From: a virus
Lineage: Duplodnaviria; Heunggongvirae; Uroviricota; Caudoviricetes
DNA: 45,350 nucleotides
IMG/VR virus record: IMGVR_UViG_2541047917_000003
Strand: one strand, 5' to 3'
A program made the position numbers and the translations under genes. This document shows, one piece after another, positions 3,001-43,932 of this stretch. The notes under the pieces are model-generated. The model saw only the letters and a program-made list of their open reading frames with translations. It was not told where the DNA came from and did no database searches. The first letter of the stretch is position 1. Every line of letters starts with the position of its first letter.

Positions 3001-3480
3001 GGTGGTTTTGCCCTTAATGGTGATGTCTTTTTCCGTCACCCAGCCACCGTTACGCTGTATCTGAACCAGCAGGCGGACTTCCGACGGATTCCGGTCCCCC
3101 TTTGAAGTGGTTTCCACCAGAGCCTGCACACCGAAGGTAAAGCGCAGACGGTCGATGTTTGCAGACGTGATGGTCCGGGTGATCGGCGTGTCATATTTCA
3201 CTTCCGTACCCAGCACCGTCTCGGATCCGGAGGATTCAAAACCCTCCGGCGGTGTCTGCTCCTGCTCACCTGCCCGGAACACCACCGTGACACCGGCGAT
3301 GTTGGTATTCCCTTCACTGTCCAGCACCGGCGTACTGTTCAGCAGCACGCTTTTTAATCCATCCACCGGACCTTCTATCGGCCCTTCGCTGATGGCATCG
3401 ATCACACTCAGTAACTGCGTGGATTTCAGGTTGTCCTTCGCTTCGCGCGGGGTATGCCCCTTACTGCTGCCTTTACCCAT
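1..3480 (-). CDS. J: Tail tip / host-specificity protein J
   Basis: 1159-aa ORF ending at window position 1-3 (stop). Collinear with lambda J, last gene of the tail operon; C-terminus ...[16 protein letters not shown]. Confidence 0.95.
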
Positions 3481-3540
3481 TCGTCATGCTCCATAAACGA
3501 CAAAACCGCCCGCAGGCGGTTTCACATAAAACATTTTGCA

Positions 3541-4212
3541 TCAGCGACCAATCACCACAACCTGACCACCATCCCCTTCGTCTGCCGTGCTGATCTCCTG
3601 AGAAACCACCCGCGACCCCACACGCATTTCACCGTACAGAACAGGCAAAACATTGCCCTGGGCAACCATGTTATCCAGTGAGGAGAAATAGGTGTTCTGC
3701 TTACCGTTATCCGTTGTCTGTGTGCGGGGAGTTCTGGCTTTCGGTGCCAGCATCTGAGCCACACCGCCGAGCACCATACTGGCACCGAGAGAAAACAGAA
3801 TGCCGGTCATACCACCGGCCCCAATGGCTGTCCCCCATGCTGCAAGGGTGACTCCGGCGGTAAAGAATGATCCGGCAATGGCGGCTGCCCCCAGGACAAT
3901 CTGGAATACGCCACCTGACTTGGCCCCGGCGACTCTGGGAACGATATGAATCACAGCGCCGTCAGGCAGAGCCTCATGTAACTGCGCCGTTAATCCGGAC
4001 GTGCTGACATCCTGCCCGGCAATACGTACCTGATACCAGCCGTCGCTCAGTTTCTGACGAAACGAAGGGAGCTGTGTGGCCAGCGCCCGGATGGCTTCAG
4101 CCCCCGTTTTCACACGAAGGTCGATGCGGCGGCCAAATCGTTGTAAATCCCCGTAAAGGCAGATGCGTGCCATGCCCGGTGACGCCAGAGGGAGTGTGTG
4201 CGTCGCTGCCAT
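3541..4212 (-). CDS. I: Tail assembly protein I
   Basis: 223-aa ORF between K and J; overlaps the K 3' end by ~103 nt as in lambda. Confidence 0.9.
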   Translation of the reverse strand: MAATHTLPLASPGMARICLYGDLQRFGRRIDLRVKTGAEAIRALATQLPSFRQKLSDGWYQVRIAGQDVSTSGLTAQLHEALPDGAVIHIVPRVAGAKSGGVFQIVLGAAAIAGSFFTAGVTLAAWGTAIGAGGMTGILFSLGASMVLGGVAQMLAPKARTPRTQTTDNGKQNTYFSSLDNMVAQGNVLPVLYGEMRVGSRVVSQEISTADEGDGGQVVVIGR

Positions 4213-4853
4213 TTGTCGGTATACCTCTCTCGTTTGCTCAGTTGTTCAGGAATATGGTGCAGCAGCTCGCCGTCACCACAGTAAATGGCGGCATGATTCG
4301 GCACAGATGAACCAAAACAGCACAGCAGCACATCGCCCGGCTGCGCCGCTGACAGCGGCACCTGATACAGCCCTGTGGCCTCCAGATTATCCAGATAGAG
4401 ATTCTGACCGTTACGCCACCAGTCATCCTCACGATGAAAATCCGGCATCTCAATCCCCGCCAGATGGTAAGCATCCCGGAACAGCGTGTAACAGTCCGTC
4501 ACCCCGTGCTCAAAGAGCCGCCCGGTGAGATGCGGCACACAGCGGAACTTATGAATCGCCCCCCGGCAGACCAGCCACCACGGCAAATCACTCTGCACCT
4601 GCAGTCGCCGGTCGGCCTCACTCAGCCAGGGCAGACCACCGGGATGGCTGTGCACCAGCGCCACAATCTCACCCTGCATTTCTGCCCGCAGCCAGTCCTC
4701 CGGCGACATCCGGAAATACTCCTCCGGCTCACCGGAGATATTTACGCAGGTAAGATATCTGTCTCCCTCCGGCGTTCTCACCACAAAGCCGCACGACTCC
4801 GCTGGCGCACATCGCCGGGCGTGCGCCAGAATCGCTGATTCTGTCTGTGTCAT
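4110..4853 (-). CDS. K: Tail assembly protein K (JAB/MPN-like plus NlpC/P60-like)
   Basis: 247-aa ORF with ATG 5 nt after the L stop; HSHPGG...S..D JAMM-like motif. Lambda K is usually annotated as 199 aa from an internal Met (MSPEDWL); the longer form includes the metal-binding N-terminal part. Confidence 0.85.
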   Translation of the reverse strand: MTQTESAILAHARRCAPAESCGFVVRTPEGDRYLTCVNISGEPEEYFRMSPEDWLRAEMQGEIVALVHSHPGGLPWLSEADRRLQVQSDLPWWLVCRGAIHKFRCVPHLTGRLFEHGVTDCYTLFRDAYHLAGIEMPDFHREDDWWRNGQNLYLDNLEATGLYQVPLSAAQPGDVLLCCFGSSVPNHAAIYCGDGELLHHIPEQLSKRERYTDKWQRRTHSLWRHRAWHASAFTGIYNDLAAASTFV

Positions 4854-4858
4854 GGGAT

Positions 4859-5557
4859 TTACTGCGAAAGTTTGTTAATGGAAAGGAAGCCGCCAAAGTT
4901 GCCGACGTTATTGCGAAACTTACAGCCACTCAGGCATTTGCTGCATTTATCCTTCGTGATATCGGATGTAGGCTGGTCATATTCATCAGCGACAGCCGGA
5001 CCGTTATAACCGCACTCATCACCGCGATAGGTCCAGGTGCAGGTATTAGCCAGCATGATGCGCCCCGGAAAAACAGCACCATCCGTTTCCGTCGGCGTGG
5101 ACAGTACAAAAGAGGCACTGACCGCGCTCAGTTCGCTGCACTGCTCGATGCGCCAGCGGCTGATCACCTCCTGCTCCGGATCGGCGTCGCTGTTTCCGTT
5201 GACGAAGTTCACCGCATCCAGAAAACGGGCATAAACCTTACGCCTGACCACCGTTCCGCCGACCAGACTCTGCAGGTCTTCCGCCATCCCGGTGACCATA
5301 CCGTACAGGTTAGAAACCGTCAGCGTGGGGCGCGTACTGGTGCCTTTGCCATTCAGTTCGAAACCACTCCCCTGAATGGGATACGCCTGATACTGTCGCC
5401 CCTGCCAGGTGACCGGCTCACCTTTTTCGTTCTGCTAATTACAGAAAAAATAACGTTCTCCACCAACCTCTGTCAGATCGATTTCCCAGAGCACCACGCA
5501 GGCAGACTGCTCCGCACGGGTGCATTCATTCAGTGTTTCCTGTCGGATATCCTGCAT
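4859..5557 (-). pseudogene. L: Tail tip assembly protein L interrupted by an in-frame amber codon at codon 41
   Basis: ATG at 5557-5555 overlaps the M stop (TGATG). The frame reads MQDIRQETLNECTRAEQSACVVLWEIDLTEVGGERYFFCN, then TAG (+ strand cta at 5435-5437), then QNEKGEPVTWQGRQYQ... in the same frame. The ORF track shows only the downstream 146-aa ORF 4859..5299 starting at an internal Met. Confidence 0.8.
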
Positions 5558-5886
5558 CAGTTCACCACCTGTTCAAACTCTGCGCTGAACTCAACACGCA
5601 ACATACTGACCCGCGACGACCATTTTGCGCAGGTCACCTTTATCTGCCGCCACTCATAAGGCGGCGTCCACAGAAAGGATTTCCAGCCCCCGTGCTCTTC
5701 CAGAAACGACTCCAGTACCGTGGCCTCCTCACGGGGGACAGAAAGCGTCACGCTGTACGTTTTCAGGTTGGCATTCAGCCCGGCAGGCGCTCGCTGAGAA
5801 TAGCCATCACCAAAGCGCACCTTTCTTACAGAAGGGACCGAAGCCACATCCATACCGGGTTTCACTTTCCAGCGGAAGGTCTTCAT
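5557..5886 (-). CDS. M: Tail assembly protein M
   Basis: 109-aa ORF collinear with lambda M, between H and L. Confidence 0.9.
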   Translation of the reverse strand: MKTFRWKVKPGMDVASVPSVRKVRFGDGYSQRAPAGLNANLKTYSVTLSVPREEATVLESFLEEHGGWKSFLWTPPYEWRQIKVTCAKWSSRVSMLRVEFSAEFEQVVN

Positions 5887-8462
5887 CGTCCACCTCCGGA
5901 GAACAGGCCACCATCACGCATCTGTGTCTGAATTTCATCACGGGCACCCTTGCGGGCCATGTCATACACCGCCTTCAGAGCAGCCGGACCTATCTGCCCG
6001 TTCGTGCCGTCGTTGTTAATCACCACATGGTTATTCTGCTCAAACGTCCCGGACGCCTGCGACCGGCTGTCTGCCATGCTGCCCGGTGTACCGACATAAC
6101 CGCCGGTGGCATAGCCGCGCATCAGCCGGTAAAGATTCCCCACGCCAATCCGGCTGGTTGCCTCCTTCGTGAAGACAAACTCACCACGGTGAACAATCCC
6201 CGCTGGCTCATATTTGCCGCCGGTTCCCGTAAATCCTCCGGTTGCAAAATGGAATTTCGCCGCAGCGGCCTGAATGGCTGTACCGCCTGACGCGGATGCG
6301 CCGCCACCAACAGCCCCGCCAATGGCGCTGCCGATACTCCCGACAATCCCCACCATTGCCTGCTTAAGCAGAATTTCTGTCATCATGGACAGCACGGAAC
6401 GGGTGAAGCTGCGCCAGTTCTGTTCACTGCCGGTCAGCATCGCCGCCATATTATGCGCAATACCATCAAAGGTCTGCGTGGCTGCACTTTTAACCTGCGA
6501 CATACTGTCCGTGGCGCTCTCTTCCCACTCACTCCAGCCTGACCTGAGGCCTGCCATCCAGCTCCCGCGAAGCTGGTCTTCAGCCGCCCAGGTCTTTTTC
6601 TGCTCTGACATGACGCTATTCAGCGCCAGCGGATTATCGCCATACTGTTCCTTCAGGCGCTGTTCCGTGGCGTCCCGCGCTGCCTGCCGGTCAGTCAGCC
6701 CCCGGTTTTTCGCCTCAATGGCTGCCCGTTTTGCCCGTTGCTGCTGTGCGAATTTATCCGCCTGCTGCGCCAGCGCGTTCAGGTGCTCCTGATACGTGAC
6801 CTTATCGCCAAGTGCAGCCAGCTGGCGTTTGTACTCCAGCGTCTCGTCTTTATGCGCCAGCAGGGATTTCTCCTGTGCGGACAGCTGGCGACGTTGCGCC
6901 GCCTCCTCCAGTACCGCGAACTGACTCTCCGCCTTCCACAAATCCCGGCGCTGCTGGCTGATTTTCTCATTTGCTCCGGCATGCTTCTCCAGCGTCCGGA
7001 GTTCTGCCTGAAGCGTCAGCAGGGCAACATGAGCACTGTCTTCCTGACGATCGCCCGCAGACACCTTCACGCCGGACTGTTTCGGCTTTTTCAGCGTCGC
7101 TTCATAATCCTTTTTCGCCGCCGCCATCAGCGTGTTGTAATCTGCCTGCAGGATTTTCCCGTCCTTCAGTGCCTTGTTCAGTTCTTCCTGACGGGCGGTA
7201 TATTTCTCCAGCGGCGTCTGCAGCCGTTCGTAAGCCTTCTGCGCCTCTTCGGTATATTTCAGCCGTGATGCCTCAGACTCGGCCCAGTCCTTTGCTGCCA
7301 TCTCTCTGGCCTTTTCAAGATCGGCCTGCAACGTGGCGGCTGAAAGTCCAAGTTGCGCATTCGCTCTGTCCTCCCATGCTCCCCGGAGATTGGCAAGAAA
7401 TGCTGAGGTTTTACCGCGCCGGTGGCTCCGGCTCTGATACCACTGCCATTTTTTGTCCGCCTCATCAAAAGCCTTTTCTGCTTTCTCCAGCATTCCCTGG
7501 GCAGTGTCCGGGCGACCAATATCCAGCACCGAATCCCACATGGATTTGAATGCCCGTGCTGTCCTGTCTGCCCAGGTCTCCAGCGTGCCCATGTTCTCTT
7601 TCAGGCGGCGGGTCTGGTCATCAAACCCTTTCGTTGCGGCCTCGTTCGCCGCCTGCAATGCGCCGGCTTCATCTCCGGAACGCTGCAACTGAGCAACATA
7701 CGCAATCTGCTCCGCCGTCACGTTATGGAACTGACGTGCCATCGCTGTCAGTCCCGACGTCGGGTCTGTGGTCAGCTTCCCGAAGGCTTCAGCGACCTTG
7801 TCCACCTCCACGCCGGATGCAGAGGAGAAACGCGCCACACTCTGGCTGATCGCCTCAAACTGCTCACCACCACGCACACCGGCATTCACCAGCGCCGTCA
7901 GTGACTCGCTGGTCTGGTTAAACGTCAGCCCTGCCGCCTGCCCGGCTCTGGACAGGACCAGCATACGATCTGCCGTCAGTCCCGCCTGATTGCCGGAAAG
8001 GACCAGCGTTTTGTTGAAATCGGACAGGGTTGAGTTGCCCTGATACCAGGCATACGCCAGCGCACCGGTCGCCACCGCCAGCGAGGTGGCCCCCACCATC
8101 GGCAGGGTGATCGCACCGGCAAGCCCCCTGAACATGGGGATCATCCCGCCGAAGGAGTCCTTAACCTGACCCCCCTGTTGCAGCAGGATCAGCCACGGGC
8201 TTTGCCCGCCTGCAAGCTGCGTGGCCACGTCGGTGAACTGTGCAGGCAGCATACGCATGGCGGCTTTATACTGTCCGACGGAAATCCCCGCTTTCTGTGC
8301 AGCCAGCGCCTGCCGGTTCATTGACTGTTCAACGACTGCCGCTGTTTTTTTCGCATCACTTTCCGTACCGGAAAAATGACGCCTGACTCTGGCCATCTGC
8401 TCGTCAAATCTGGCCGCATCCAGACTCAAATCAACGACCAGATCGCCTACCGGTTCAGCCAT
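5883..8462 (-). CDS. H: Tail tape measure protein H
   Basis: 859-aa ORF starting MAEPVGDLVVDLSLDAARFDEQ; Gly-rich C-terminal segment; position after G/T. Confidence 0.95.
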   Translation of the reverse strand: MAEPVGDLVVDLSLDAARFDEQMARVRRHFSGTESDAKKTAAVVEQSMNRQALAAQKAGISVGQYKAAMRMLPAQFTDVATQLAGGQSPWLILLQQGGQVKDSFGGMIPMFRGLAGAITLPMVGATSLAVATGALAYAWYQGNSTLSDFNKTLVLSGNQAGLTADRMLVLSRAGQAAGLTFNQTSESLTALVNAGVRGGEQFEAISQSVARFSSASGVEVDKVAEAFGKLTTDPTSGLTAMARQFHNVTAEQIAYVAQLQRSGDEAGALQAANEAATKGFDDQTRRLKENMGTLETWADRTARAFKSMWDSVLDIGRPDTAQGMLEKAEKAFDEADKKWQWYQSRSHRRGKTSAFLANLRGAWEDRANAQLGLSAATLQADLEKAREMAAKDWAESEASRLKYTEEAQKAYERLQTPLEKYTARQEELNKALKDGKILQADYNTLMAAAKKDYEATLKKPKQSGVKVSAGDRQEDSAHVALLTLQAELRTLEKHAGANEKISQQRRDLWKAESQFAVLEEAAQRRQLSAQEKSLLAHKDETLEYKRQLAALGDKVTYQEHLNALAQQADKFAQQQRAKRAAIEAKNRGLTDRQAARDATEQRLKEQYGDNPLALNSVMSEQKKTWAAEDQLRGSWMAGLRSGWSEWEESATDSMSQVKSAATQTFDGIAHNMAAMLTGSEQNWRSFTRSVLSMMTEILLKQAMVGIVGSIGSAIGGAVGGGASASGGTAIQAAAAKFHFATGGFTGTGGKYEPAGIVHRGEFVFTKEATSRIGVGNLYRLMRGYATGGYVGTPGSMADSRSQASGTFEQNNHVVINNDGTNGQIGPAALKAVYDMARKGARDEIQTQMRDGGLFSGGGR

Positions 8463-23824: not shown

Positions 23825-24907
23825 ATGAAAAAATTAACAGTGGCAATTTCTGCTGTAGCTGCATCAGTACTGATGGCGATGTCTGCTCAGGCAGCTGAAA
23901 TTTATAATAAAGACAGTAACAAGCTGGATCTGTACGGGAAAGTTAATGCTAAGCACTACTTCTCCTCTAATGATGCAGATGATGGTGATACTACTTATGC
24001 CCGTCTTGGCTTCAAAGGTGAAACCCAAATCAACGATCAACTGACTGGTTTCGGTCAGTGGGAATATGAATTCAAAGGCAACCGCGCTGAATCTCAAGGT
24101 TCCTCCAAAGACAAAACCCGTCTTGCATTTGCAGGCCTGAAATTCGGTGACTACGGCTCAATCGATTACGGCCGTAACTACGGTGTAGCATACGACATCG
24201 GTGCGTGGACTGACGTTCTGCCAGAATTCGGTGGCGATACCTGGACCCAAACAGATGTGTTCATGACTGGTCGCACCACTGGTGTTGCAACCTATCGTAA
24301 CAACGACTTCTTTGGTCTGGTCGATGGCCTGAACTTTGCTGCTCAGTATCAGGGTAAAAATGACCGCACTGACGTAACTGAAGCCAATGGTGATGGTTTC
24401 GGTTTCTCCACTACTTATGAGTATGAAGGATTCGGCGTGGGTGCAACCTATGCTAAATCAGATCGCACTGACGGTCAGGTCGCCTATGGTAAGAGCAAAT
24501 TCAATGCCTCCGGCAAAAATGCGGAAGTATGGGCTGCAGGCCTGAAATATGATGCGAACAATATCTATCTGGCTACCACATATTCTGAAACTCAGAATAT
24601 GACCGTTTTTGGTAATAACCATATTGCAAACAAAGCACAAAACTTTGAAGCAGTAGCACAATATCAGTTTGACTTCGGTCTGCGACCATCTGTTGCTTAC
24701 CTTCAGTCAAAAGGTAAAGACCTTGGTGTTCATGGTGACCGAGACTTAGTCAAGTATGTCGATGTCGGTGCTACTTACTACTTTAATAAAAACATGTCCA
24801 CTTTTGTTGATTACAAAATCAACTTAATTGACGATAGTAAGTTTACCAAAACAGCTGGTATTGATACCGACGACATCGTCGCTGTAGGTCTGGTGTATCA
24901 GTTCTAA
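23825..24907 (+). CDS. Outer-membrane general porin, OmpC/OmpF family (phage-encoded Lc/NmpC-like)
   Basis: 360-aa ORF with signal peptide [30 protein letters not shown]...GKVN start and C-terminal ...VAVGLVYQF; sits between Q and S on the opposite strand as nmpC does in DLP12. Confidence 0.9.
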
Positions 24908-28106: not shown

Positions 28107-28804
28107 ACACTTGCTCCTTTTAGTCCGAACTTAGCTTTGATTTCTGCGATCTTCGCCAGAGCCTGTGCACGATTTAGAGGTCTACCGCCCATGACAGGAA
28201 GTTGTTTTACTGGTTCAGGGATCGCCTCACCACGGTTAATTCTCGCAGTCATATGGACAAGCTCATCTGCGGCCTTACGGCGTAATTCCGCATCAGTAAG
28301 CGCATTGGCCCGCATGTTCTGATACAGGTTGGTAACCAGCCAGTAGTGCGCGTTTGATTTCCACGGATAAGACTCCGCATCCGGATACAGGCCTCGCTTC
28401 CGGCAATACTCGTAAACCATATCAACCAGCTCGCTGACGTTTGGCAGTCCGGCGATAACGGATGCTTCTTCCCGGCACCATGCAACAAACTGCCCGGGTG
28501 ATGGCAGAAATGGTCGATTCTGCCGACGGGCTACGCGCATTCCTGCGTTAACCTGTTCCATCGTGGTGATCCCGTTTTCCCGAAAAGCCAGAACCCACTG
28601 GCGACGGATTTCGTTCACTTCGTTCTGGTCACGGTTAGCCAGGCTCGCCGGGAAAGTTGCCAGTAACTGGCTGAACACACCGTTGATGATCTGCGCTACC
28701 TGCTGTACCTGCGGCTTTTCATCGTACTGTTCCGGCATGTTGTTGGCGATCCGACGCATCTGCTCACGGTCAAAGTTAACCATCTGTGCGGCGATGTTTT
28801 TCAT
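28103..28804 (-). CDS. P: Replication protein P (DnaB helicase loader)
   Basis: 233-aa ORF collinear with lambda P. Confidence 0.95.
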   Translation of the reverse strand: MKNIAAQMVNFDREQMRRIANNMPEQYDEKPQVQQVAQIINGVFSQLLATFPASLANRDQNEVNEIRRQWVLAFRENGITTMEQVNAGMRVARRQNRPFLPSPGQFVAWCREEASVIAGLPNVSELVDMVYEYCRKRGLYPDAESYPWKSNAHYWLVTNLYQNMRANALTDAELRRKAADELVHMTARINRGEAIPEPVKQLPVMGGRPLNRAQALAKIAEIKAKFGLKGASV

Positions 28805-29631
28805 AGATCCACCCCGTAAATCCAGTCTGTGTTTGTCAGGTCGAGTTTTGGTTTGCTGGCTGTCACGCCTGCCTGTTGCTTGTTACGGTTGATTTCGAGT
28901 TGGGTCCACTTATCGCGGAGTTTGGCCGGGCTCAGCACGTTACCGGACCAGAAGTTGTCCTGGCATGCCCAGCGGAACAGCACGCACATGTCGCGGTGGT
29001 TACGTCCGTCACGTTCACGCATCAGGCGGATATCGTTAGCCCACCCAGCAAAATTCGGTTTTCTGGCTGATGGTGCGATAGTCTTCACCATGTCAAACAT
29101 CCACTCTGCGGCGGTCAGGTCTTCTGCTGTCCCCCACTTGCTGCCGCTCTGAATTGCAGCATCCGGTTTCACCACAGAAAGGTCGTTTTCTGGCTGGTCA
29201 GAGGATTCGCCAGAATTCTCTGACGAATAATCTTTTCTTTTTTCTTTTGTAATAGTGTCTTTTGTGTCCCCCTGTTTTGAGGGATAGCAATCCCCCAATT
29301 TGAGGGATGTTTTATCCCTCGTTTTAGGGGATTTTCCCTCGTTTTGAGGGATGCACCATTCTGAGATGTTTTTATTTGGTCCAAACATGCCGCCTTGCTG
29401 CTTGATAATATTCATTCTGACGAGTTCTAACTTGGCTTCATTGCACCGTTTGACAGGTAACTTTGTAATCTCGCTAAGTTGAGAATCGGTGATTCTGTCC
29501 ATTGGTTTATTCCACCCATAGGTTTTACGCAGAATGGCAAGCAGCACTTTAAACTGTCGCTTGGTCAGATCTGCGCCCGAATAAGCCTCAAGCAGCATAT
29601 TTGATAGTCTGGCGTAACCATCATCGAGATC
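28801..29631 (-). pseudogene. O: Replication initiator O, 3' portion (codons ~24 to end) separated from its start by an IS element
   Basis: Lambda O-like sequence from ...DLDDGYARLSNMLLEAYSGADLTKRQFKVLL... to the end. The ORF-track start at 29661 is a GTG inside the IS left end (MWITIAPFVT-DLDD fusion). Confidence 0.85.
29266..29353. repeat. ori-lambda iterons (four ~19-bp O-binding repeats) with adjacent AT-rich region
   Basis: tcccccctgttttgaggga / atcccccaatttgaggga / atccctcgttttagggga / tccctcgttttgaggga inside the O coding region, next to a T-rich stretch (29221-29260). Coordinates approximate. Confidence 0.85.
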
Positions 29632-31659
<2,028 letters not shown>

Positions 31660-32345: not shown

Positions 32346-32455
32346 ATGCCCTCCATAGTAAACACGAATAAAAAATACAATATGTACTTTACGAATACAA
32401 GTAAAAATACACATTGTGCATGGATGGTTCCAGTACAAAGCGTAATAATAAGGAC
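32346..32455. promoter_or_regulatory. OR operator / pR-pRM divergent promoter region
   Basis: 110-bp AT-rich spacer between divergent cro and cI; motifs AATACAATATGTACTT (32374-32389) and AGTACAAAGCGTAATAA (32432-32448) recur near pL, consistent with shared repressor operators distinct from lambda. Confidence 0.6.
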
Positions 32456-33115
32456 ATGAAAATGAAATGGTATGAACTGGCTAGATCCAGAATGAAAGAG
32501 CTCGGCATAACTCAAGAGAAGTTAGCCGAAGAGCTAGGTATGACGCAGGGTGGGATTGGACACTGGTTGCGCGGATCTCGTCATCCATCTCTTAGTGATA
32601 TTGGTGTGGTGTTTAAATACCTTGGTATTGATAACATATCATTCAACCACGACGGGACATTTTCACCTGTTGGCGAATACTCATCGGCCCCAGTTAAAAA
32701 ACAATATGAGTACCCTGTTTTTTCTCATGTTCAGGCTGGGATGTTCTCTCCAGAACTCAGAACCTTTACCAAAGGCGATGCGGAGAGATTGGTAAGCACA
32801 ACCAAAAAAGCCAGTGACTCTGCATTCTGGCTTGAGGTTGAAGGTAACTCAATGACCGCACCAACAGGTTCCAAGCCCAGCTTTCCTGACGGGATGTTAA
32901 TTCTGGTTGACCCTGAGCAGGCTGTTGAGCCAGGCGATTTCTGTATAGCCAGACTTGGTGGTGATGAGTTTACCTTCAAGAAACTGATCAGGGATAGCGG
33001 TCAGATGTTTCTACAGCCACTAAACCCACAATACCCAATGATCCCATGCAATGAGAGTTGTTCCGTTGTGGGGAAAGTTATCGCTAGTCAGTGGCCTGAA
33101 GAGACGTTTGGGTGA
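32456..33115 (+). CDS. cI: CI repressor (chimeric: non-lambda DNA-binding domain, lambda-type C-terminal S24 peptidase domain)
   Basis: ATG at 32456. From ...[28 protein letters not shown] to ...[13 protein letters not shown] matches the recalled lambda CI C-terminal domain; N-terminal HTH domain ([37 protein letters not shown]) differs. Confidence 0.9.
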
Positions 33116-33214
33116 TGTGACTGCATGTAATTTATCAAAAGCGCACATACCCTATGCTAAACAACTTACTGATTAATTTACTGAAAATCATTTATTAAAA
33201 AGTAAGGATTGCCA

Positions 33215-34066
33215 ATGAATTTTTCGGAAGAAAAAAATAAAGATTTCCCCAAAAAAGTACAAACTTCGCTATTTGAAGTAGATTGTAATGACGGATACTC
33301 ATTTGTAGATGTCTTGAAGACATGCGAAAATTTCAAACAAAACTATGACTTTGAGTACTCTAACGACACTCGGGCAAGGATAAAAAGTCTAATAGTTAAC
33401 GATGACCAAATCTTTGCTGGGATAACACTCTATGAGCCCAAAGCTTTGGTCCCGGTAACTCCAAAAGATGGAGACCATAACGATTTGCAGGATGTAGATA
33501 ATTATGATAAATGCCATATATTCTTGCTTGCAACAGAAAGCAATATTCTAACAATTTTTCAACTATCAGGAACTCATCCTTTATCTAAGTTAAAAAAAAT
33601 ATTTAGCCTCATGAATATCAATGTGAATATTTCTGAGAAACTCAACAAAGATGCACTTGGCAAGATAATAAAAGATGGAATACGCTCCATCAGCCTAAGT
33701 ATTGAAACAACAAAAGAAGATCTAGAAGAGGCAAAAGCAACATCATTAGGTATCACTGGAAAAGCTAAAGAAGCTTTGTCAAGATTATTTGAGAAAGAGC
33801 AAGATGATGACAACTCTTTCTATGGGCTTCTGACTCTTGACAAGAGACATAACCCAAAACTCTTAAATATTGCGAACAAAAATCCAAGCCTGATCATTGA
33901 TGAATTATCGGAAGAGTTCTTCATCACAACATCAAAAGGCCAAGCGATCAAAAGCTCTGAAATCAAAACAAAAAAAGATTATTACACAAGAAAGTATGGC
34001 TCTACCACCATAAAAGCGGAACACGCTAAGGAAATTCTTGAGCACTTCAAGGATTTCATACTATAA
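33215..34066 (+). CDS. Hypothetical protein in the rexA position (candidate exclusion-system sensor)
   Basis: 283-aa ORF (ATG 33215, SD aaggat) 100 nt downstream of cI on the same strand; AT-, Lys-, Asn- and Asp-rich; no hydrophobic segments; no family recognised. Confidence 0.6.
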   Translation: MNFSEEKNKDFPKKVQTSLFEVDCNDGYSFVDVLKTCENFKQNYDFEYSNDTRARIKSLIVNDDQIFAGITLYEPKALVPVTPKDGDHNDLQDVDNYDKCHIFLLATESNILTIFQLSGTHPLSKLKKIFSLMNINVNISEKLNKDALGKIIKDGIRSISLSIETTKEDLEEAKATSLGITGKAKEALSRLFEKEQDDDNSFYGLLTLDKRHNPKLLNIANKNPSLIIDELSEEFFITTSKGQAIKSSEIKTKKDYYTRKYGSTTIKAEHAKEILEHFKDFIL

Positions 34067-34103: not shown

Positions 34104-34595
34104 ATGAGAGGTAAAGATTGGAGTTATATTTTTTCCATAATCTTTTTTATCTGCCTTTCTCTTGTATTAACTTATTATTTACATGATAAGGTTAGATATA
34201 ACAAAGAGTTGCTTGGACTTGTGGCAAATATATTTTCAATATTAACAGGGTTTCTGTTACTTGTTATAACCACAAGTGGAGACGTAGCATCGTTTACAGA
34301 AGGTAAATCAAGATCAGAAAAGTATGCAACTAAGAGGAAATTCGAAATTCGGTTTTCTCGTTACATGATGCTTTTTTACCTCTATCTTACAGTCTTGTGC
34401 TTAATATTCTTCTACTACATGCTGCTGCCACCAGGAGACACCAGTAAAATCTTAGCAAGCAAGCCGCCTGTGACCAACCTGAGTCTGGCACTTGAGTTTA
34501 TTATATGCTGGCTAAGCATAATTTCATTTGGATGCTCTTTTTTCATACCAATAAAGCTGAAACAGATTTATAACGAAAAACTCAAGCAACAATAA
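34104..34595 (+). CDS. Hypothetical four-TM membrane protein in the rexB position (candidate exclusion-system effector)
   Basis: 163-aa ORF (SD gggggagg) with four hydrophobic segments (IFSIIFFICLSLVLTYYL, LLGLVANIFSILTGFLLLVITT, YMMLFYLYLTVLCLIFFYYMLL, LSLALEFIICWLSIISFGCSFFIPI); size and topology as RexB, no sequence similarity seen. Confidence 0.6.
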   Translation: MRGKDWSYIFSIIFFICLSLVLTYYLHDKVRYNKELLGLVANIFSILTGFLLLVITTSGDVASFTEGKSRSEKYATKRKFEIRFSRYMMLFYLYLTVLCLIFFYYMLLPPGDTSKILASKPPVTNLSLALEFIICWLSIISFGCSFFIPIKLKQIYNEKLKQQ

Positions 34596-37587: not shown

Positions 37588-38373
37588 ATGAGTACAGCAC
37601 TCGCAACGCTGGCTGGGAAGCTGGCTGAACGTGTCGGCATGGATTCTGTCGACCCACAGGAACTGATCACCACTCTTCGCCAGACGGCATTTAAAGGTGA
37701 TGCCAGCGATGCGCAGTTCATCGCATTGCTGATCGTCGCCAACCAGTACGGCCTTAATCCGTGGACGAAAGAAATTTACGCCTTCCCTGATAAGCAGAAC
37801 GGCATTGTTCCGGTGGTGGGCGTTGATGGCTGGTCCCGCATCATCAATGAAAACCAGCAGTTTGATGGCATGGACTTTGAGCAGGACAATGAATCCTGTA
37901 CATGCCGGATTTACCGCAAGGACCGTAATCATCCGATCTGCGTTACCGAATGGATGGATGAATGCCGCCGCGAACCATTCAAAACCCGCGAAGGCAGAGA
38001 AATCACGGGGCCGTGGCAGTCGCATCCCAAACGGATGTTACGGCATAAAGCCATGATTCAGTGTGCCCGTCTGGCCTTCGGATTTGCTGGTATCTATGAC
38101 AAGGATGAAGCCGAGCGCATTGTCGAAAATACTGCATACACTGCAGAACGTCAGCCGGAACGCGACATCACTCCGGTTAACGATGAAACCATGCAGGAGA
38201 TTAACACTCTGCTGATCGCCCTGGATAAAACATGGGATGACGACTTATTGCCGCTCTGTTCCCAGATATTTCGCCGCGACATTCGCGCATCGTCAGAACT
38301 GACACAGGCCGAAGCAGTGAAAGCTCTTGGATTCCTTAAACAGAAAGCCACTGAGCAGAAGGTGGCAGCATGA
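37588..38373 (+). CDS. bet: Bet (Red-beta single-strand annealing protein)
   Basis: 261-aa [40 protein letters not shown]..., lambda Bet-like. Confidence 0.95.
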
Positions 38374-39050
38374 TACCGGACATTATCCTGCAGCGTACCG
38401 GGATCGACGTGAGAGCTGTCGAACAGGGGGATGATGCATGGCACAAATTACGGCTCGGCGTCATCACCGCTTCAGAAGTTCACAACGTGATAGCAAAGCC
38501 CCGCTCAGGAAAGAAGTGGCCTGACATGAAAATGTCCTACTTCCACACCCTGCTTGCCGAGGTTTGCACCGGTGTGGCTCCGGAAGTTAACGCTAAGGCG
38601 CTGGCCTGGGGAAAACAGTACGAGAACGACGCCAGAGCCCTCTTTGAGTTCACTTCCGGCGTGAATGTTACTGAATCCCCGATCATCTATCGCGACGAAA
38701 GTATGCGCACCGCCTGCTCTCCCGATGGTTTATGCAGTGACGGCAACGGCCTTGAACTGAAATGCCCGTTTACCTCCCGGGATTTCATGAAGTTCCGGCT
38801 CGGTGGTTTCGAGGCCATAAAGTCGGCTTACATGGCCCAGGTGCAGTACAGCATGTGGGTGACGCGAAAAGATGCCTGGTACTTTGCCAACTATGACCCA
38901 CGAATGAAGCGTGAAGGCCTGCATTATGTCGTGGTTGAGCGGGATGAAAATTACATGGCGAGTTTTGACGAGATGGTGCCGGAGTTCATCGAAAAAATGG
39001 ACGAGGCACTGGCTGAAATTGGTTTTGTATTTGGGGAGCAATGGCGATGA
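38370..39050 (+). CDS. exo: Exo (lambda exonuclease, Red-alpha)
   Basis: 226-aa [43 protein letters not shown]..., lambda Exo-like. Confidence 0.95.
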
Positions 39051-39783: not shown

Positions 39784-40005
39784 ATGGCAGACATCATTGA
39801 TTCAGCATCAGAAATTGAAGAATTACAGCGCAACACAGCAATAAAAATGCGTCGTCTGAACTACCAGACTGTATCTGCCACTCATTGTTGTGAGTGTGGC
39901 GATCCGATAGATGAACGAAGACGCCTGGTCGTTCAGGGTTGTCGGACTTGTGCAAGTTGCCAGGAGGATCTGGAGCTTATCAGTAAACAGAGAGGTTCGA
40001 AGTGA
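39784..40005 (+). CDS. DksA/TraR-type C4 zinc-finger protein (lambda orf73-like)
   Basis: 73-aa ORF with CCECGDPIDERRRLVVQGCRTCASC. Confidence 0.7.
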   Translation: MADIIDSASEIEELQRNTAIKMRRLNYQTVSATHCCECGDPIDERRRLVVQGCRTCASCQEDLELISKQRGSK

Positions 40006-40409
40006 GCGAAATTAACTCTCAGGCACTGCGTGAAGCGGCAGAGAAAGCCGGTGAAGATAAGTGGCAGGCTAAAAAAATAAATGGTGATTTTTTCGTTATT
40101 CGTCACGGTAGTTATACAAGACAGCATGGCTACACATCGTATCAACCCATTGCGGAGATTGATTGTAAGCCAGTCCGGGATTTTGTTGCCAAGGCTAATC
40201 CGGCTACCGTGCTGGAATTACTGGATGAACTGGAAGCAGCAAAAAAGCGCATTGCAGAACTGGAAGCGCGGGAAATACTGCTCCCGGAACGTAGCAGCAT
40301 GCTTCATCGAACAGATTTTCACGATGATTACCAAACGGTAATGGCATACAAAGTTTCTGAAGTCATCGATGCAATCCGCGCTACTGGCATTCGCATCAAA
40401 GGAGAGTGA
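40002..40409 (+). CDS. exo-xis region protein with coiled-coil segment (hypothetical)
   Basis: 135-aa ORF overlapping the preceding stop; LDELEAAKKRIAELEARE heptad-like segment; occupies part of the ea22 slot. Confidence 0.5.
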   Translation: MSEINSQALREAAEKAGEDKWQAKKINGDFFVIRHGSYTRQHGYTSYQPIAEIDCKPVRDFVAKANPATVLELLDELEAAKKRIAELEAREILLPERSSMLHRTDFHDDYQTVMAYKVSEVIDAIRATGIRIKGE

Positions 40410-40410
40410 G

Positions 40411-41166
40411 ATGATTCACTACCACGGTGGGCCTATTACTCCTGATACGTGCGCAATGAGAGCATGGAAAGGGCGACATGCGTTTATCAGTTTTGCGCAT
40501 TCAGGCCAGATCAATCTCGCGGCTGAATACTGTCAGTCGTTCGCGCTGGACAACGGTGCATTCACCGCCTGGAAAGCAGCTGGCAAAAACAAAATCGACT
40601 GGAGCGATTACTACGAGTTTGTTGCTCGCTGGAAGAATCACCCAGGATTCGATTTTGCCATTATCCCGGATATTATTGATGGCGGAGAGGAGGAAAATGA
40701 TGCGCTTCTGAATGAGTGGCCTCACGGAAAACTAGCTGGCGTTCCAGTGTGGCACATGAATGAAAGTGACGCGCGATTTATTCATTTGTGCAATGAGTTT
40801 CCGCGAGTGGCTATCGGTAGTTGTGGCGACTATGACGTAAAGCGCCCAACTCTTGCGGTAGCCAGAATGAAAGACCTGATTCGTCACATTGTTGATGGGC
40901 ATGGTCAGCCGGTTACGAAACTACATGGATTGCGCATGTTAAATCCGCTGATATTCACAAAATTACCCTTAGCCAGCGCAGATAGTACGAACGTCGCTCG
41001 AAACATCGGTATTGATAAAGCCTGGTCTGGGGCTTATGCACCTGCAAGTAAAGAGACACGCGCAGCATTAATGGTAGAACGGATTGAGGCACACAATAGC
41101 CCTGGTTCTCTTGCGTATTGTGAACAACGCGACCGCTTTGAAATGCAATTGCAACTAGCAGTTTAA
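40411..41166 (+). CDS. TGT-fold protein, candidate DpdA-like DNA-guanine transglycosylase
   Basis: ORF 40369..41166; likely start MIHYHGGPITPD (ATG 40411, SD aaaggagag). Motifs FALDNGAF and LASADSTNVARNIG resemble, from memory, the E. coli Tgt catalytic motifs LTDSGGFQ and DMFDCVMPTRNARNG; no CxCxxC zinc site seen. Confidence 0.45.
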   Translation: MIHYHGGPITPDTCAMRAWKGRHAFISFAHSGQINLAAEYCQSFALDNGAFTAWKAAGKNKIDWSDYYEFVARWKNHPGFDFAIIPDIIDGGEEENDALLNEWPHGKLAGVPVWHMNESDARFIHLCNEFPRVAIGSCGDYDVKRPTLAVARMKDLIRHIVDGHGQPVTKLHGLRMLNPLIFTKLPLASADSTNVARNIGIDKAWSGAYAPASKETRAALMVERIEAHNSPGSLAYCEQRDRFEMQLQLAV

Positions 41167-41176
41167 GGACTAACAA

Positions 41177-41974
41177 ATGACCACTATTACCAAAGAACGT
41201 ATTGAATTGTTCATTAAAAATCCGCTTGAAAACGGGCTTACTCGTGGCGAACAAATGGAACTGGCACGAATTGCACTGGCATCACTGGAACGCGAACTGA
41301 TTCGCCACGAGCATGCCAAATGGTCTGACTCCACATTTGGCTGCGTTGGCCCCATTGGTCCACTGAAACACCTCTCAAAAGAGGCTCTGGAAGCCGCAGC
41401 CGAACCAGACGATCTCAGCGAGTGGGCTGATATGCATTTCCTGTTGTGGGATGCACAGCGCCGTGCTGGCATCAGCGATGCTGAAATTACCGCTGCTATG
41501 GAAGATAAATTGAAGATCAACATGGAGCGCCAGTGGCCTGAACCAAAAGATGGTGAGCCTCGCTTGCACATTAAAGAACCCGGCAACTCTCCGGTAATTC
41601 CGGATGGTTTATCCACGGTATGCGCTGAGGCTTATCAGGTTGTAGGAGTTATGGCAGATGCGCTTGGTGTATTCGGTGATGCAGCAGTACAGAAAGTTCT
41701 GGATAACCTGTCACAGCAAAAACTTGTTCACAAAGATGTGCTGCCGTTCTCGCTTCCGGTGACTCCGGATGGTTGGATAAGCTGTAGTGAGCGAATGCCG
41801 AAAGAAACGGGTGACATTATTGTTGTTTCGGATGGCATTGTAATGTCCGGGATTTCTTATTCTCGTCGTGACGGGTTCTATATAGCCGCATTGGAGTACG
41901 ACGACGATGAGCCAATTGGCGGTGTAACCCACTGGATGCCTCTACCAGAACCGCCTCGATTAAAGGAGCTATAA
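41177..41974 (+). CDS. DUF550 (MazG-like nucleotide pyrophosphohydrolase) plus DUF551 protein, YfdR/YfdS-like
   Basis: 265-aa ORF; N-terminal KHLSKEALEAAAEPDDLSEWADMHFLLWDAQRRAGIS resembles MazG/HisE-type helices; C-terminal ...DGWISCSERMPKE...THWMPLPEPP resembles DUF551. From memory. Confidence 0.55.
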   Translation: MTTITKERIELFIKNPLENGLTRGEQMELARIALASLERELIRHEHAKWSDSTFGCVGPIGPLKHLSKEALEAAAEPDDLSEWADMHFLLWDAQRRAGISDAEITAAMEDKLKINMERQWPEPKDGEPRLHIKEPGNSPVIPDGLSTVCAEAYQVVGVMADALGVFGDAAVQKVLDNLSQQKLVHKDVLPFSLPVTPDGWISCSERMPKETGDIIVVSDGIVMSGISYSRRDGFYIAALEYDDDEPIGGVTHWMPLPEPPRLKEL

Positions 41975-42088
41975 TAGTGAACTATTATATCTATTTGTAT
42001 TAAAAGAGTTTTTATAAAATAAATCTCCCAAAGCATGTAAAAACACTGTTAATCTTAACGTGTGTGAAACGTGAAGAGAGGTGTTGAA

Positions 42089-42370
42089 ATGAGCATTCAT
42101 GATTTGTGTGAAGATCAAGAGCAATGGGCTATGCAGACCCTTATGGGATCAGGAGTTCTTGCAAGGTGCAGAATCCATAACGATGTAATTTTAGACAGCG
42201 GAAATGATGCTTCTTCTGCTTATAAATTAGGAACTTACCTATATCAAAAAGATAATAGCTGCAACTTATTCAATACTCTTACTGAAGCCCGCGACGCAAT
42301 AAAGGATGCATATGAATCGTATTGTGGGATCGATGATTGCCCACAATGCTCAAAATACATTGACGATTAA
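42089..42370 (+). CDS. ea8.5: Ea8.5-like protein
   Basis: ORF 42071..42370; likely start MSIHDLCEDQEQWAMQTL (93 aa, SD agagaggtg); C-terminal CPQCSKYIDD zinc-binding tail; lambda ea8.5 position ~295 nt before xis. Confidence 0.6.
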   Translation: MSIHDLCEDQEQWAMQTLMGSGVLARCRIHNDVILDSGNDASSAYKLGTYLYQKDNSCNLFNTLTEARDAIKDAYESYCGIDDCPQCSKYIDD

Positions 42371-42665: not shown

Positions 42666-42884
42666 ATGTACTTGACACTTCAGGAGTGGAACGCTCGCCA
42701 GCGACGCCCAAGAAGCCTTGAAACAGTTCGTCGATGGGTGCGCGAATGCAGGATATTCCCTCCTCCGGTTAAGGATGGAAGAGAATATCTGTTCCACGAA
42801 TCAGCGGTAAAGGTTGACTTAAATCGACCAGTAACAGGTAGCCTTTTGAAGAGGATCAGAAATGGGAAGAAGGCGAAGTCATGA
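42666..42884 (+). CDS. xis: Excisionase Xis
   Basis: 72-aa ORF MYLTLQEWNARQRRPRSLETVRRWVRECRIFPPPVKDGREYLFHESA..., lambda Xis-like; overlaps the int start. Confidence 0.95.
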   Translation: MYLTLQEWNARQRRPRSLETVRRWVRECRIFPPPVKDGREYLFHESAVKVDLNRPVTGSLLKRIRNGKKAKS

Positions 42885-43932
42885 GCGCCGGGATTTACCC
42901 CCTAACCTTTATATAAGAAACAATGGATATTACTGCTACAGGGACCCAAGGACGGGTAAAGAGTTTGGATTAGGCAGAGACAGGCGAATCGCAATCACTG
43001 AAGCTATACAGGCCAACATTGAGTTATTTTCAGGACACAAACACAAGCCTCTGACAGCGAGAATCAACAGTGATAATTCCGTTACGTTACATTCATGGCT
43101 TGATCGCTACGAAAAAATCCTGGCCAGCAGAGGAATCAAGCAGAAGACACTCATAAATTACATGAGCAAAATTAAAGCAATAAGGAGGGGTCTGCCTGAT
43201 GCTCCACTTGAAGACATCACCACAAAAGAAATTGCGGCAATGCTCAATGGATACATAGACGAGGGCAAGGCGGCGTCAGCCAAGTTAATCAGATCAACAC
43301 TGAGCGATGCATTCCGAGAGGCAATAGCTGAAGGCCATATAACAACAAACCCTGTCGCTGCCACTCGCGCAGCAAAATCAGAGGTAAGGAGATCAAGACT
43401 TACGGCTGACGAATACCTGAAAATTTATCAAGCAGCAGAATCATCACCATGTTGGCTCAGACTTGCAATGGAACTGGCTGTTGTTACCGGGCAGCGAGTT
43501 GGTGATTTATGCGAAATGAAGTGGTCTGATATCGTAGATGGATATCTTTATGTCGAGCAAAGCAAAACAGGCGTAAAAATTGCCATCCCAACAACATTGC
43601 ATGTTGATGCTCTCGGGATATCAATGAAGGAAACACTTGATAAATGCAAAAAGATTCTTGGCGGAGAAACCATAATTGCATCTACTCGTCGTGAACCGCT
43701 TTCATCCGGCACAGTATCAAGGTATTTTATGCGCGCACGAAAAGCATCAGGTCTCTCCTTCGAAGGGGATCCGCCAACCTTTCACGAGTTGCGCAGTTTG
43801 TCTGCAAGACTCTATGAGAAGCAGATAAGCGATAAATTTGCTCAACATCTTCTCGGGCATAAGTCGGACACCATGGCATCACAGTATCGTGATGACAGAG
43901 GCAGGGAGTGGGACAAAATTGAAATCAAATAA
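42862..43932 (+). CDS. int: Integrase Int (tyrosine recombinase)
   Basis: 356-aa ORF MGRRRSHERRDLPPNLYIRNNGYYCYRDPRTGKEFGLGRD..., lambda Int-like. Confidence 0.95.
   Translation: MGRRRSHERRDLPPNLYIRNNGYYCYRDPRTGKEFGLGRDRRIAITEAIQANIELFSGHKHKPLTARINSDNSVTLHSWLDRYEKILASRGIKQKTLINYMSKIKAIRRGLPDAPLEDITTKEIAAMLNGYIDEGKAASAKLIRSTLSDAFREAIAEGHITTNPVAATRAAKSEVRRSRLTADEYLKIYQAAESSPCWLRLAMELAVVTGQRVGDLCEMKWSDIVDGYLYVEQSKTGVKIAIPTTLHVDALGISMKETLDKCKKILGGETIIASTRREPLSSGTVSRYFMRARKASGLSFEGDPPTFHELRSLSARLYEKQISDKFAQHLLGHKSDTMASQYRDDRGREWDKIEIK

Follow-up and report, generated by a model that had tools for sequence, protein, structure and literature searches.

In this study, two neighbouring genes in the exo-xis region of a prophage, the virus record IMGVR_UViG_2541047917_000003, were investigated using sequence searches, structure prediction and comparison of genomic loci. 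The window (the whole stretch of 45,350 nucleotides that was analysed) is a lambda-like Escherichia coli prophage, and its pL operon reads on the plus strand, because int lies at 42862–43932 on that strand. A copy with 100% identity is present in E. coli S1-CAM-01-C, beside ybhC at the lambda attachment site. The first open reading frame (ORF), ORF1 (40411–41166, plus strand), encodes 251 amino acids (aa) and is assigned here to the stand-alone members of the phage DpdA family of DNA-guanine transglycosylases, enzymes that replace guanine in DNA by a 7-deazaguanine base, with a predicted TIM barrel. The second, ORF2 (41177–41974, plus strand), encodes a mosaic accessory protein of 265 aa. An earlier note on this DNA had described two tightly spaced ORFs of these sizes on the pL strand, and this arrangement was confirmed: ORF2 starts 10 nt past the ORF1 stop codon with TAAGGA upstream, and the gap between them shows no promoter-like or terminator-like site. 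Both proteins are conserved well beyond chance, with 7710 homologues in a large protein database and 784 representatives at 50% clustering, and the exact pair was found in 101 complete E. coli genomes.

The longest frame of ORF1 spans 40369–41166, and the ATG at 40411 yields the 251-aa product. This ATG was taken as the correct start because the homologues begin with MIHYHGGP and are about 251 aa long, a Shine–Dalgarno sequence read as AAGGAG (40399–40404, plus strand) lies 6 nt before it, and the RefSeq Prokaryotic Genome Annotation Pipeline (PGAP) agrees. A start at 40369 was rejected, since it would overlap the gene on the 5′ side, whose stop codon (40407–40409) is just upstream of the ATG, and since the homologues start at MIHYHGG. 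PGAP labels the E. coli gene hypothetical. The two motifs that had attracted attention in the earlier note are FALDNGAF (residues 44–51) and LASADSTNVARNIG (residues 187–200). The five cysteines of ORF1 are at positions 14, 41, 127, 138 and 237, so that no CxCxxC cluster is formed; the absence of such a zinc-binding cluster, already remarked in that note, is no anomaly, as the validated DpdA of phage CAjan is also without it.

At the sequence level, ORF1 matched phrog_887 ("queuine tRNA-ribosyltransferase") with an E value of 2.6e-101, and the genetically validated CAjan DpdA falls in the same family (E 8e-96). A family profile was built from 52 diverse homologues with 33–93% identity and compared using hhalign with CAjan DpdA (98.9% probability, E 9.7e-18) and with an alignment of 10 DpdA1 sequences, including those of CAjan, 9g, Dp-1 and CRB2 (99.5% probability, E 2.6e-22). 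Profile searches, which the earlier note had named as a check on the transglycosylase likeness and whose failure it would have taken as refutation, succeeded with the DpdA1 profile and failed with the standard libraries, given that ORF1 was unmatched in Pfam (including the tRNA-guanine transglycosylase (TGT) model PF01702), NCBIfam and the PADLOC DpdA model. PF01702 matched none of the 52 homologues. Searches of the PDB sequences using phmmer and the family hidden Markov model returned nothing for ORF1, or noise such as GCN4 coils, and the family profile aligned with the single E. coli Tgt sequence at a probability of only 0.7%. The link between ORF1 and Tgt runs solely via phage DpdA1 and via the fold.

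The conserved residues are consistent with this assignment. D47, H172, S189, D191 and S192 are invariant in the 52 homologues down to 33% identity, and D87 (at least 90% conserved) and H115 are near-invariant. In the order D47, D87, H115, H172, S189, D191 and S192, these positions align with the invariant D63, D105, H132, H187, S204, D206 and S207 of DpdA1, and the three active-site aspartates of phage DpdA are all present in ORF1. From the alignment, the predicted active site comprises D47 (with F51 as the fourth residue after it) as general acid/base, D87 for base recognition, H115, H172, and D191, within an SADST motif, as nucleophile. These roles are given to the aspartates because mutagenesis of bacterial DpdA assigned them: in that enzyme, D95 is the general acid/base (with F99 four residues on), D130 reads the base and D256 is the nucleophile, and guanine exchange was abolished by mutating D95 or D256 (PMC10164549). 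We consider ORF1 a member of the phage DpdA family, within the "DpdA only" clade of gammaproteobacterial temperate phages, with a probability of about 90%.

The fold of ORF1 was predicted with AlphaFold2. A model from a shallow alignment with a predicted local distance difference test score (pLDDT) of 75.7 was replaced by one from a deeper alignment with a pLDDT of 91.4. The latter model is a TGT-type (β/α)8 barrel, which bears out the structural expectation of the earlier note; its author had correctly recognised this fold, as well as both domains of ORF2, from the sequence alone. In the fold comparison, the model scored highest with Cap10 (PDB 9NTN, 15.6), followed by bacterial DpdA (PDB 7UI4, 14.9), archaeosine TGT (13.8), bacterial TGT (13.4) and, at 13.1 or lower, generic TIM barrels. 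A nearly identical ranking was obtained with the weaker first model, in which the two TGT entries were swapped. The modelled fold is supportive of the assignment and is by itself not decisive.

The ORF1 family is widespread in phages. Relatives were detected in 107 phage records using tblastn, including Stx1a_EH2115 (98% identity), Salmonella SPN3UB (92%), Pantoea AH07 (88%), SfI (67%), a set of Vibrio phages (60%) and Salmonella phage 7-11 (35%). SPN3UB, SfI, HK106, BTP1, SEN1, PEAT2 and 7-11 are among the 76 DpdA-encoding phages without a pathway to 7-cyano-7-deazaguanine (preQ0) that were listed by Hutinet et al. in 2019 (Supplementary Data 1). In that work, the stand-alone DpdAs clustered separately, one cluster being specific to gammaproteobacterial phages; the authors left their functional divergence open and called for functional study (PMC6884629). 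ORF1 is not new, as the 92%-identical SPN3UB protein was catalogued as a DpdA in 2019; its novelty is smaller than the earlier note implied, and as a family assignment ORF1 adds little beyond the 2019 publication. The stand-alone proteins of SPN3UB (YP_007011024), SfI (YP_009147480), HK106, BTP1 and 7-11, which belong to group 3 of Hutinet et al., are about 250 aa long, and their phages, like that of ORF1, are without preQ0 synthesis genes. Many stand-alone DpdA phages are temperate and lambdoid or P22-like, and encode the protein in either the early-left or the nin region. No essential difference separates ORF1 from these proteins; its copy is flanked by an Ea22-like gene on one side and a DUF550/DUF551 gene on the other. 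No functional work on the DpdA of the lambdoid members SPN3UB, HK106, BTP1 and SfI was found in the literature.

Comparison with characterised systems further defines the protein. DpdA1 of CAjan and 9g, which are validated preQ0 DNA insertases, is homologous to ORF1 over about 175 residues at about 23% identity, and CAjan DpdA, like ORF1, is not matched by the Pfam TGT model. The DpdA1 gene sits in a folE-queD-queE-queC-yhhQ cluster, and DpdA1 phages modify 25–32% of their guanines; the ORF1 window has none of these cluster genes. Using phage-type queries, no FolE, QueD, QueC, QueE or YhhQ homologue was found among the window ORFs, and the view of the earlier note that the substrate must come from the host holds to this extent. 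The bacterial DpdA of S. Montevideo (PDB 7UI4) is a 413-aa protein with insertions Ins1–3 and Ins8 and a CxCx2Cx22H zinc site, and it needs the DpdB ATPase, whereas ORF1 lacks these insertions, the zinc site and the DpdB partner. Cap10 of type IV cyclic oligonucleotide-based antiphage signalling systems (CBASS) has a QueC-like protein, Cap9, and a cGAS/DncV-like nucleotidyltransferase (CD-NTase) as partners, and acts on a protein-linked 7-amido-7-deazaguanine; its similarity to ORF1 is structural only, with 9% sequence identity. Such partners were sought in the window, where no QueC homologue was found and PADLOC gave no match. ORF1 has neither the PF01702 match nor the zinc-binding subdomain of a tRNA-guanine transglycosylase. 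Bacterial DpdA, tRNA TGT and Cap10 were each rejected as identities of ORF1 because a defining feature was absent each time.

The genomic context of the family was examined in two sets of loci, a close set of 80 viral loci with 86–100% identity to ORF1 and a species-level set of 62 loci from different bacterial species with 42–90% identity, and the ORFs of both were compared with reference proteins. In the close set, the DpdA-like gene has one of two placements, as is typical of mosaic behaviour: the exo-xis region, where 42 loci have an Ea22-like gene on its 5′ side, or the nin/replication region, beside NinB, RusA, DnaB or DnaC. In the species-level set, a YhhQ-type transporter or que genes occur beside or near the DpdA-like gene in nine loci. 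In seven of them, a short YhhQ/Vut_1 gene of the same strand (PF02592, a preQ0/preQ1 transporter family; preQ1, 7-aminomethyl-7-deazaguanine) directly adjoins the DpdA-like gene or overlaps with it, five being above the Pfam gathering score; a QueE-like radical S-adenosylmethionine gene abuts it in one locus, and another locus has FolE, QueD and QueE 3 kb downstream. By a rough estimate, given about one yhhQ per genome, well under one YhhQ adjacency would be expected by chance in 62 loci. The recurring partner of the family is a YhhQ-type transporter.

The clearest arrangement was observed in Erwinia sp. S63 (locus L101, NZ_JACVUP010000002.1), where a tight cluster of five genes (3215–6756) ends in a DpdA-like gene 86% identical to ORF1. 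It consists, in order, of a ParB-helix-turn-helix (HTH) and DUF550 fusion, a 154-aa protein of unknown function, an MT-A70 DNA methyltransferase, a short YhhQ-Vut_1 protein and the DpdA-like protein; their stops and starts overlap, and the cluster looks like a DNA-modification island inside a prophage. Elsewhere, Vut_1 is encoded directly downstream of the DpdA-like gene in Rhizobium phage RHph_N3_2, a QueD-like gene lies directly upstream in Caulobacter phage DMCA, and a C5 DNA methylase lies directly downstream in Pseudomonas phage Epa33. DNA methyltransferases are frequent neighbours across the family. These associations appear to tie the stand-alone DpdA clade to 7-deazaguanine precursors and DNA modification. 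The DpdA-coupled YhhQ/Vut_1 genes, at L094 (5678–6205), L101 (5537–6004), L127 (4107–4631), L131 (1968–2450), L138 (6747–7256) and L157 (365–841), encode putative transporters of 155–175 aa that cover only the C-terminal part of the Pfam model (about positions 60–150 of 152). These half-size proteins recall the 159-aa "preQ0 transporter" of phage CAjan.

ORF2 contains the two domains that the earlier note had proposed. DUF550 (PF04447) occupies residues 42–137 (41300–41587, plus strand; E 1.1e-41), scoring 141.4 bits against a cut-off of 23 over model positions 1–96 of 97, and DUF551 (PF04448), of unknown function, occupies residues 199–260 (41771–41956, plus strand; E 7.3e-14), scoring 52.8 bits against a cut-off of 22. 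Residues 1–40 form an N-terminal segment common to other genes of the ea22 region. PF04447, a domain of MazG-like fold, is now named dATP/dGTP pyrophosphohydrolase. The ExxE (KEALE, residues 68–72) and ExxD (SEWAD, residues 81–85) motifs appear typical of MazG-like enzymes. That dATP and dGTP are hydrolysed to monophosphate and pyrophosphate has been established only for the DUF550 enzyme (MazZ) of the Z-genome Acinetobacter phage SH-Ab 15497; this enzyme provides PurZ with dGMP in phages that have Z genomes (PMC12884076, PMC8342488). By analogy, the DUF550 domain of ORF2, which shares the whole PF04447 model and the ExxE/ExxD motifs with that enzyme, probably hydrolyses dATP/dGTP-type nucleotides in the same way. 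Unlike the SH-Ab 15497 protein, ORF2 has no PurZ, DatZ or DpoZ context, and its DUF550 domain is joined to DUF551 and to an N-terminal segment of unrelated origin. PGAP splits ORF2 (L001, 6809–7606) into an "incomplete" pseudogene fragment and a 206-aa dATP/dGTP pyrophosphohydrolase coding sequence; the probable reason is that residues 1–40 are those of another mosaic family. The pseudogene view was rejected, as the ORF is intact in the window.

On the 5′ side of the pair lie exo (38370–39050), three small exo-xis ORFs, a DksA/TraR zinc-finger gene (39784–40005) and, directly before ORF1, a 135-aa Ea22-family gene (40002–40409, plus strand; PF13935, E 2.6e-17), which is context rather than part of the enzyme. 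The statement of the earlier note that the pair takes the place of ea22 thus needs correction, as the Ea22-family gene is retained and the pair lies between it and ea8.5 (42071–42370), which is followed by a 55-aa ORF, xis and int. In blastn against lambda, homology ends at 40043 and restarts at 42324, except for a 29-bp island at 40384–40412 with 100% identity to lambda ea22 at its 3′ end, stop codon and following ATG included. The island includes the last 26 nt of the Ea22-family gene, its flanks are without lambda homology, and it resembles a conserved junction at a gene boundary through which mosaic recombination takes place.

Further features were observed elsewhere in the prophage. An insertion sequence (IS) element of the IS21 family (29718–31519), encoding IstA (340 aa, rve integrase core and HTH) and IstB (260 aa, PF01695, E 1e-111), lies between the cII/cro side and the replication gene O (28801–29661, minus strand); this insertion may separate O-P from pR and could leave the prophage replication-defective. 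Directly 3′ of the cI-like repressor gene (32414–33115) and on the same strand, two ORFs of 285 aa (33209–34066) and 163 aa (34104–34595) occupy the position of lambda rexA/rexB. The sole match of the former was phrog_23561, of unknown function, and the latter had none in Pfam, PHROGs or PADLOC; the two are candidate partners in exclusion or defence encoded by the prophage. On the strand opposite the late genes, a lambdoid moron of the NmpC/Lc type (23825–24907; PF00267, E 2e-151) encodes a general porin of 360 aa.

What is described above on gene structure, family membership, conserved residues, fold and genomic associations was established directly; from this point, we infer a substrate, DNA target, modification level and biological benefit for ORF1. 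We lean, if modestly, towards the reading that ORF1 inserts a 7-deazaguanine into DNA. ORF1 would be transcribed from pL with the other exo-xis genes, early upon induction or infection, and would most likely act on double-stranded phage DNA after replication. D191 would attack C1′ of the target deoxyguanosine, displacing guanine and giving an intermediate in which enzyme and DNA are covalently joined, with D47 serving as general acid and later as base, and D87 and a conserved histidine reading the base edge. A 7-deazaguanine of the host queuosine pathway (preQ0, possibly preQ1) would then resolve the intermediate. The modification is expected to be low and motif-specific, because the window is without synthesis or transport genes. 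The benefit would likely be that, in the next host, progeny DNA is partly shielded from restriction or from other defences that target DNA; we are less sure of anti-restriction as the benefit that was selected. Published work offers a precedent for such salvage: 9g DpdA by itself inserts 2′-deoxy-preQ0 into E. coli plasmid DNA at 0.03–0.3% of G (PMC6884629), and in CAjan mutants with folE or queC deleted, preQ0 of host origin is still incorporated, at a level about 12-fold lower (PMC7544227).

Several observations weigh against DNA insertion by ORF1, and some of them feed other explanations. CAjan DNA with host-derived preQ0 only was restriction-sensitive (PMC7544227), so that the protection given by a salvage-only enzyme is possibly weak or motif-limited. 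The DNA of phage 7-11, the one tested relative, contained 50 2′-deoxy-7-amido-7-deazaguanosine (dADG) residues per million nucleotides (about 0.02% of G), and mycobacteriophage Orion, which is also DpdA-only, contained zero (PMC6884629). ORF1 is a non-basic protein (isoelectric point 6.45) that lacks the DNA-binding insertion Ins8 of bacterial DpdA, is 55 residues shorter than DpdA1 and is without its C-terminal region (CAjan residues 215–306, about 90). Its top structural match, Cap10, handles a protein-linked base rather than DNA. TGT-type chemistry on something other than phage DNA, such as host or phage tRNA or a protein-attached 7-deazaguanine as in Cap10, is therefore conceivable, and ORF1 might then be a host-takeover or anti-defence factor, for example against type IV CBASS. 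Cap10 demonstrates that the fold can be repurposed, the nearly unmodified 7-11 DNA and the shortened C-terminus agree with this, and Hutinet et al. left such divergence open. We nevertheless regard a non-DNA substrate as unlikely: ORF1 is homologous to DNA-acting DpdA1 and shows no detectable match to E. coli Tgt or Pfam TGT, the tRNA-binding zinc subdomain is absent, no Cap9/QueC-like or CD-NTase partner turned up in the window, and the genes beside family members encode DNA methyltransferases and preQ0 transporters rather than tRNA or CBASS functions. A generic or decayed TIM barrel with a superficial TGT likeness and no transglycosylase activity would explain the lack of Pfam, NCBIfam and PADLOC matches, itself a point against DNA insertion, and the Foldseek search of the PDB, which also counts against it and returned generic TrpA-type barrels only (E 1.5e-3 or worse). 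Such an inactive barrel is very hard to reconcile with five invariant residues that argue for a maintained active site, with the highly significant homology to validated DpdA1 in which the same residues align, and with the linkage of the family to preQ0 transporter and que genes. A related and rather doubtful proposal is that the lambdoid stand-alone clade comprises salvage-dependent enzymes with a job other than bulk anti-restriction modification. These enzymes could imitate the Dpd-type self-marking of hosts by placing 7-deazaguanine sparsely and at specific motifs, or could act, as Cap10 does, on something other than DNA, for example tRNA or a deazaguanine carried by a protein, in host takeover or anti-defence.

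The remaining question is whether ORF2 belongs to the same function, since the earlier note had proposed that the two genes may form a module. In such a module, the DUF550 domain would adjust the pool of dGTP or 7-deaza-dGTP to assist DNA modification by ORF1. The 10-nt spacing and co-transcription of the two genes speak for this, as does the action of DUF550 on dGTP in Z-genome phages. Among 5,426 complete E. coli genomes, 201 carry this dpdA allele, and the adjacent pair is present in 101 of these. Outside E. coli, DUF550 was found near the DpdA-like gene at L101 (in the ParB fusion, three genes upstream), L067 and L035, and another MazG-like gene lies downstream at L070. However, the same DUF550 allele occurs in 500 of the E. 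coli genomes, most of which are without dpdA, and the linkage in E. coli fits shared prophage ancestry. DUF550 was present anywhere in the locus in only about 20 of the 80 close loci; in the species-level set it was never directly adjacent to the DpdA-like gene (0/62) and lay within 6 kb in 3/62. It is not next to dpdA in SfI, the Vibrio phages, RHph_N3_2, Epa33 or DMCA. The ORF2 family is itself a shuffled mosaic, whose variants in neighbouring loci retain the N-terminal 40 residues only, DUF551 only, or DUF550 with other ends. There is also no mechanistic need for a dNTP (deoxynucleoside triphosphate) hydrolase, because the base exchange by DpdA takes place on DNA that is already complete, and 9g DpdA is active by itself in E. 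coli (PMC6884629). Given the loose co-occurrence and the lack of a mechanistic need, ORF2 is treated as an independent mosaic accessory gene in a recombination-prone region and not as the dedicated partner of ORF1, and the proposed module is quite improbable.

The reading of ORF1 as a phage DpdA has implications beyond this prophage. About 4% of complete E. coli genomes (201/5,426) carry this allele in prophages, Stx-converting phages included. If ORF1 is active with host preQ0 or preQ1, overlooked 7-deazaguanine marks would be present at a low level in the DNA of common temperate coliphages and of Salmonella phages, with consequences for restriction, CRISPR, nanopore base-calling and defences that depend on modification, GmrSD-like systems among them. 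If the clade instead performs a job other than bulk modification, its recurrent association with truncated YhhQ-type transporters would be the sign of a pathway, encoded by phages, for scavenging precursors. ORF1 is a cheap test case for the role of DpdA in the 76 or more "DpdA only" phages.

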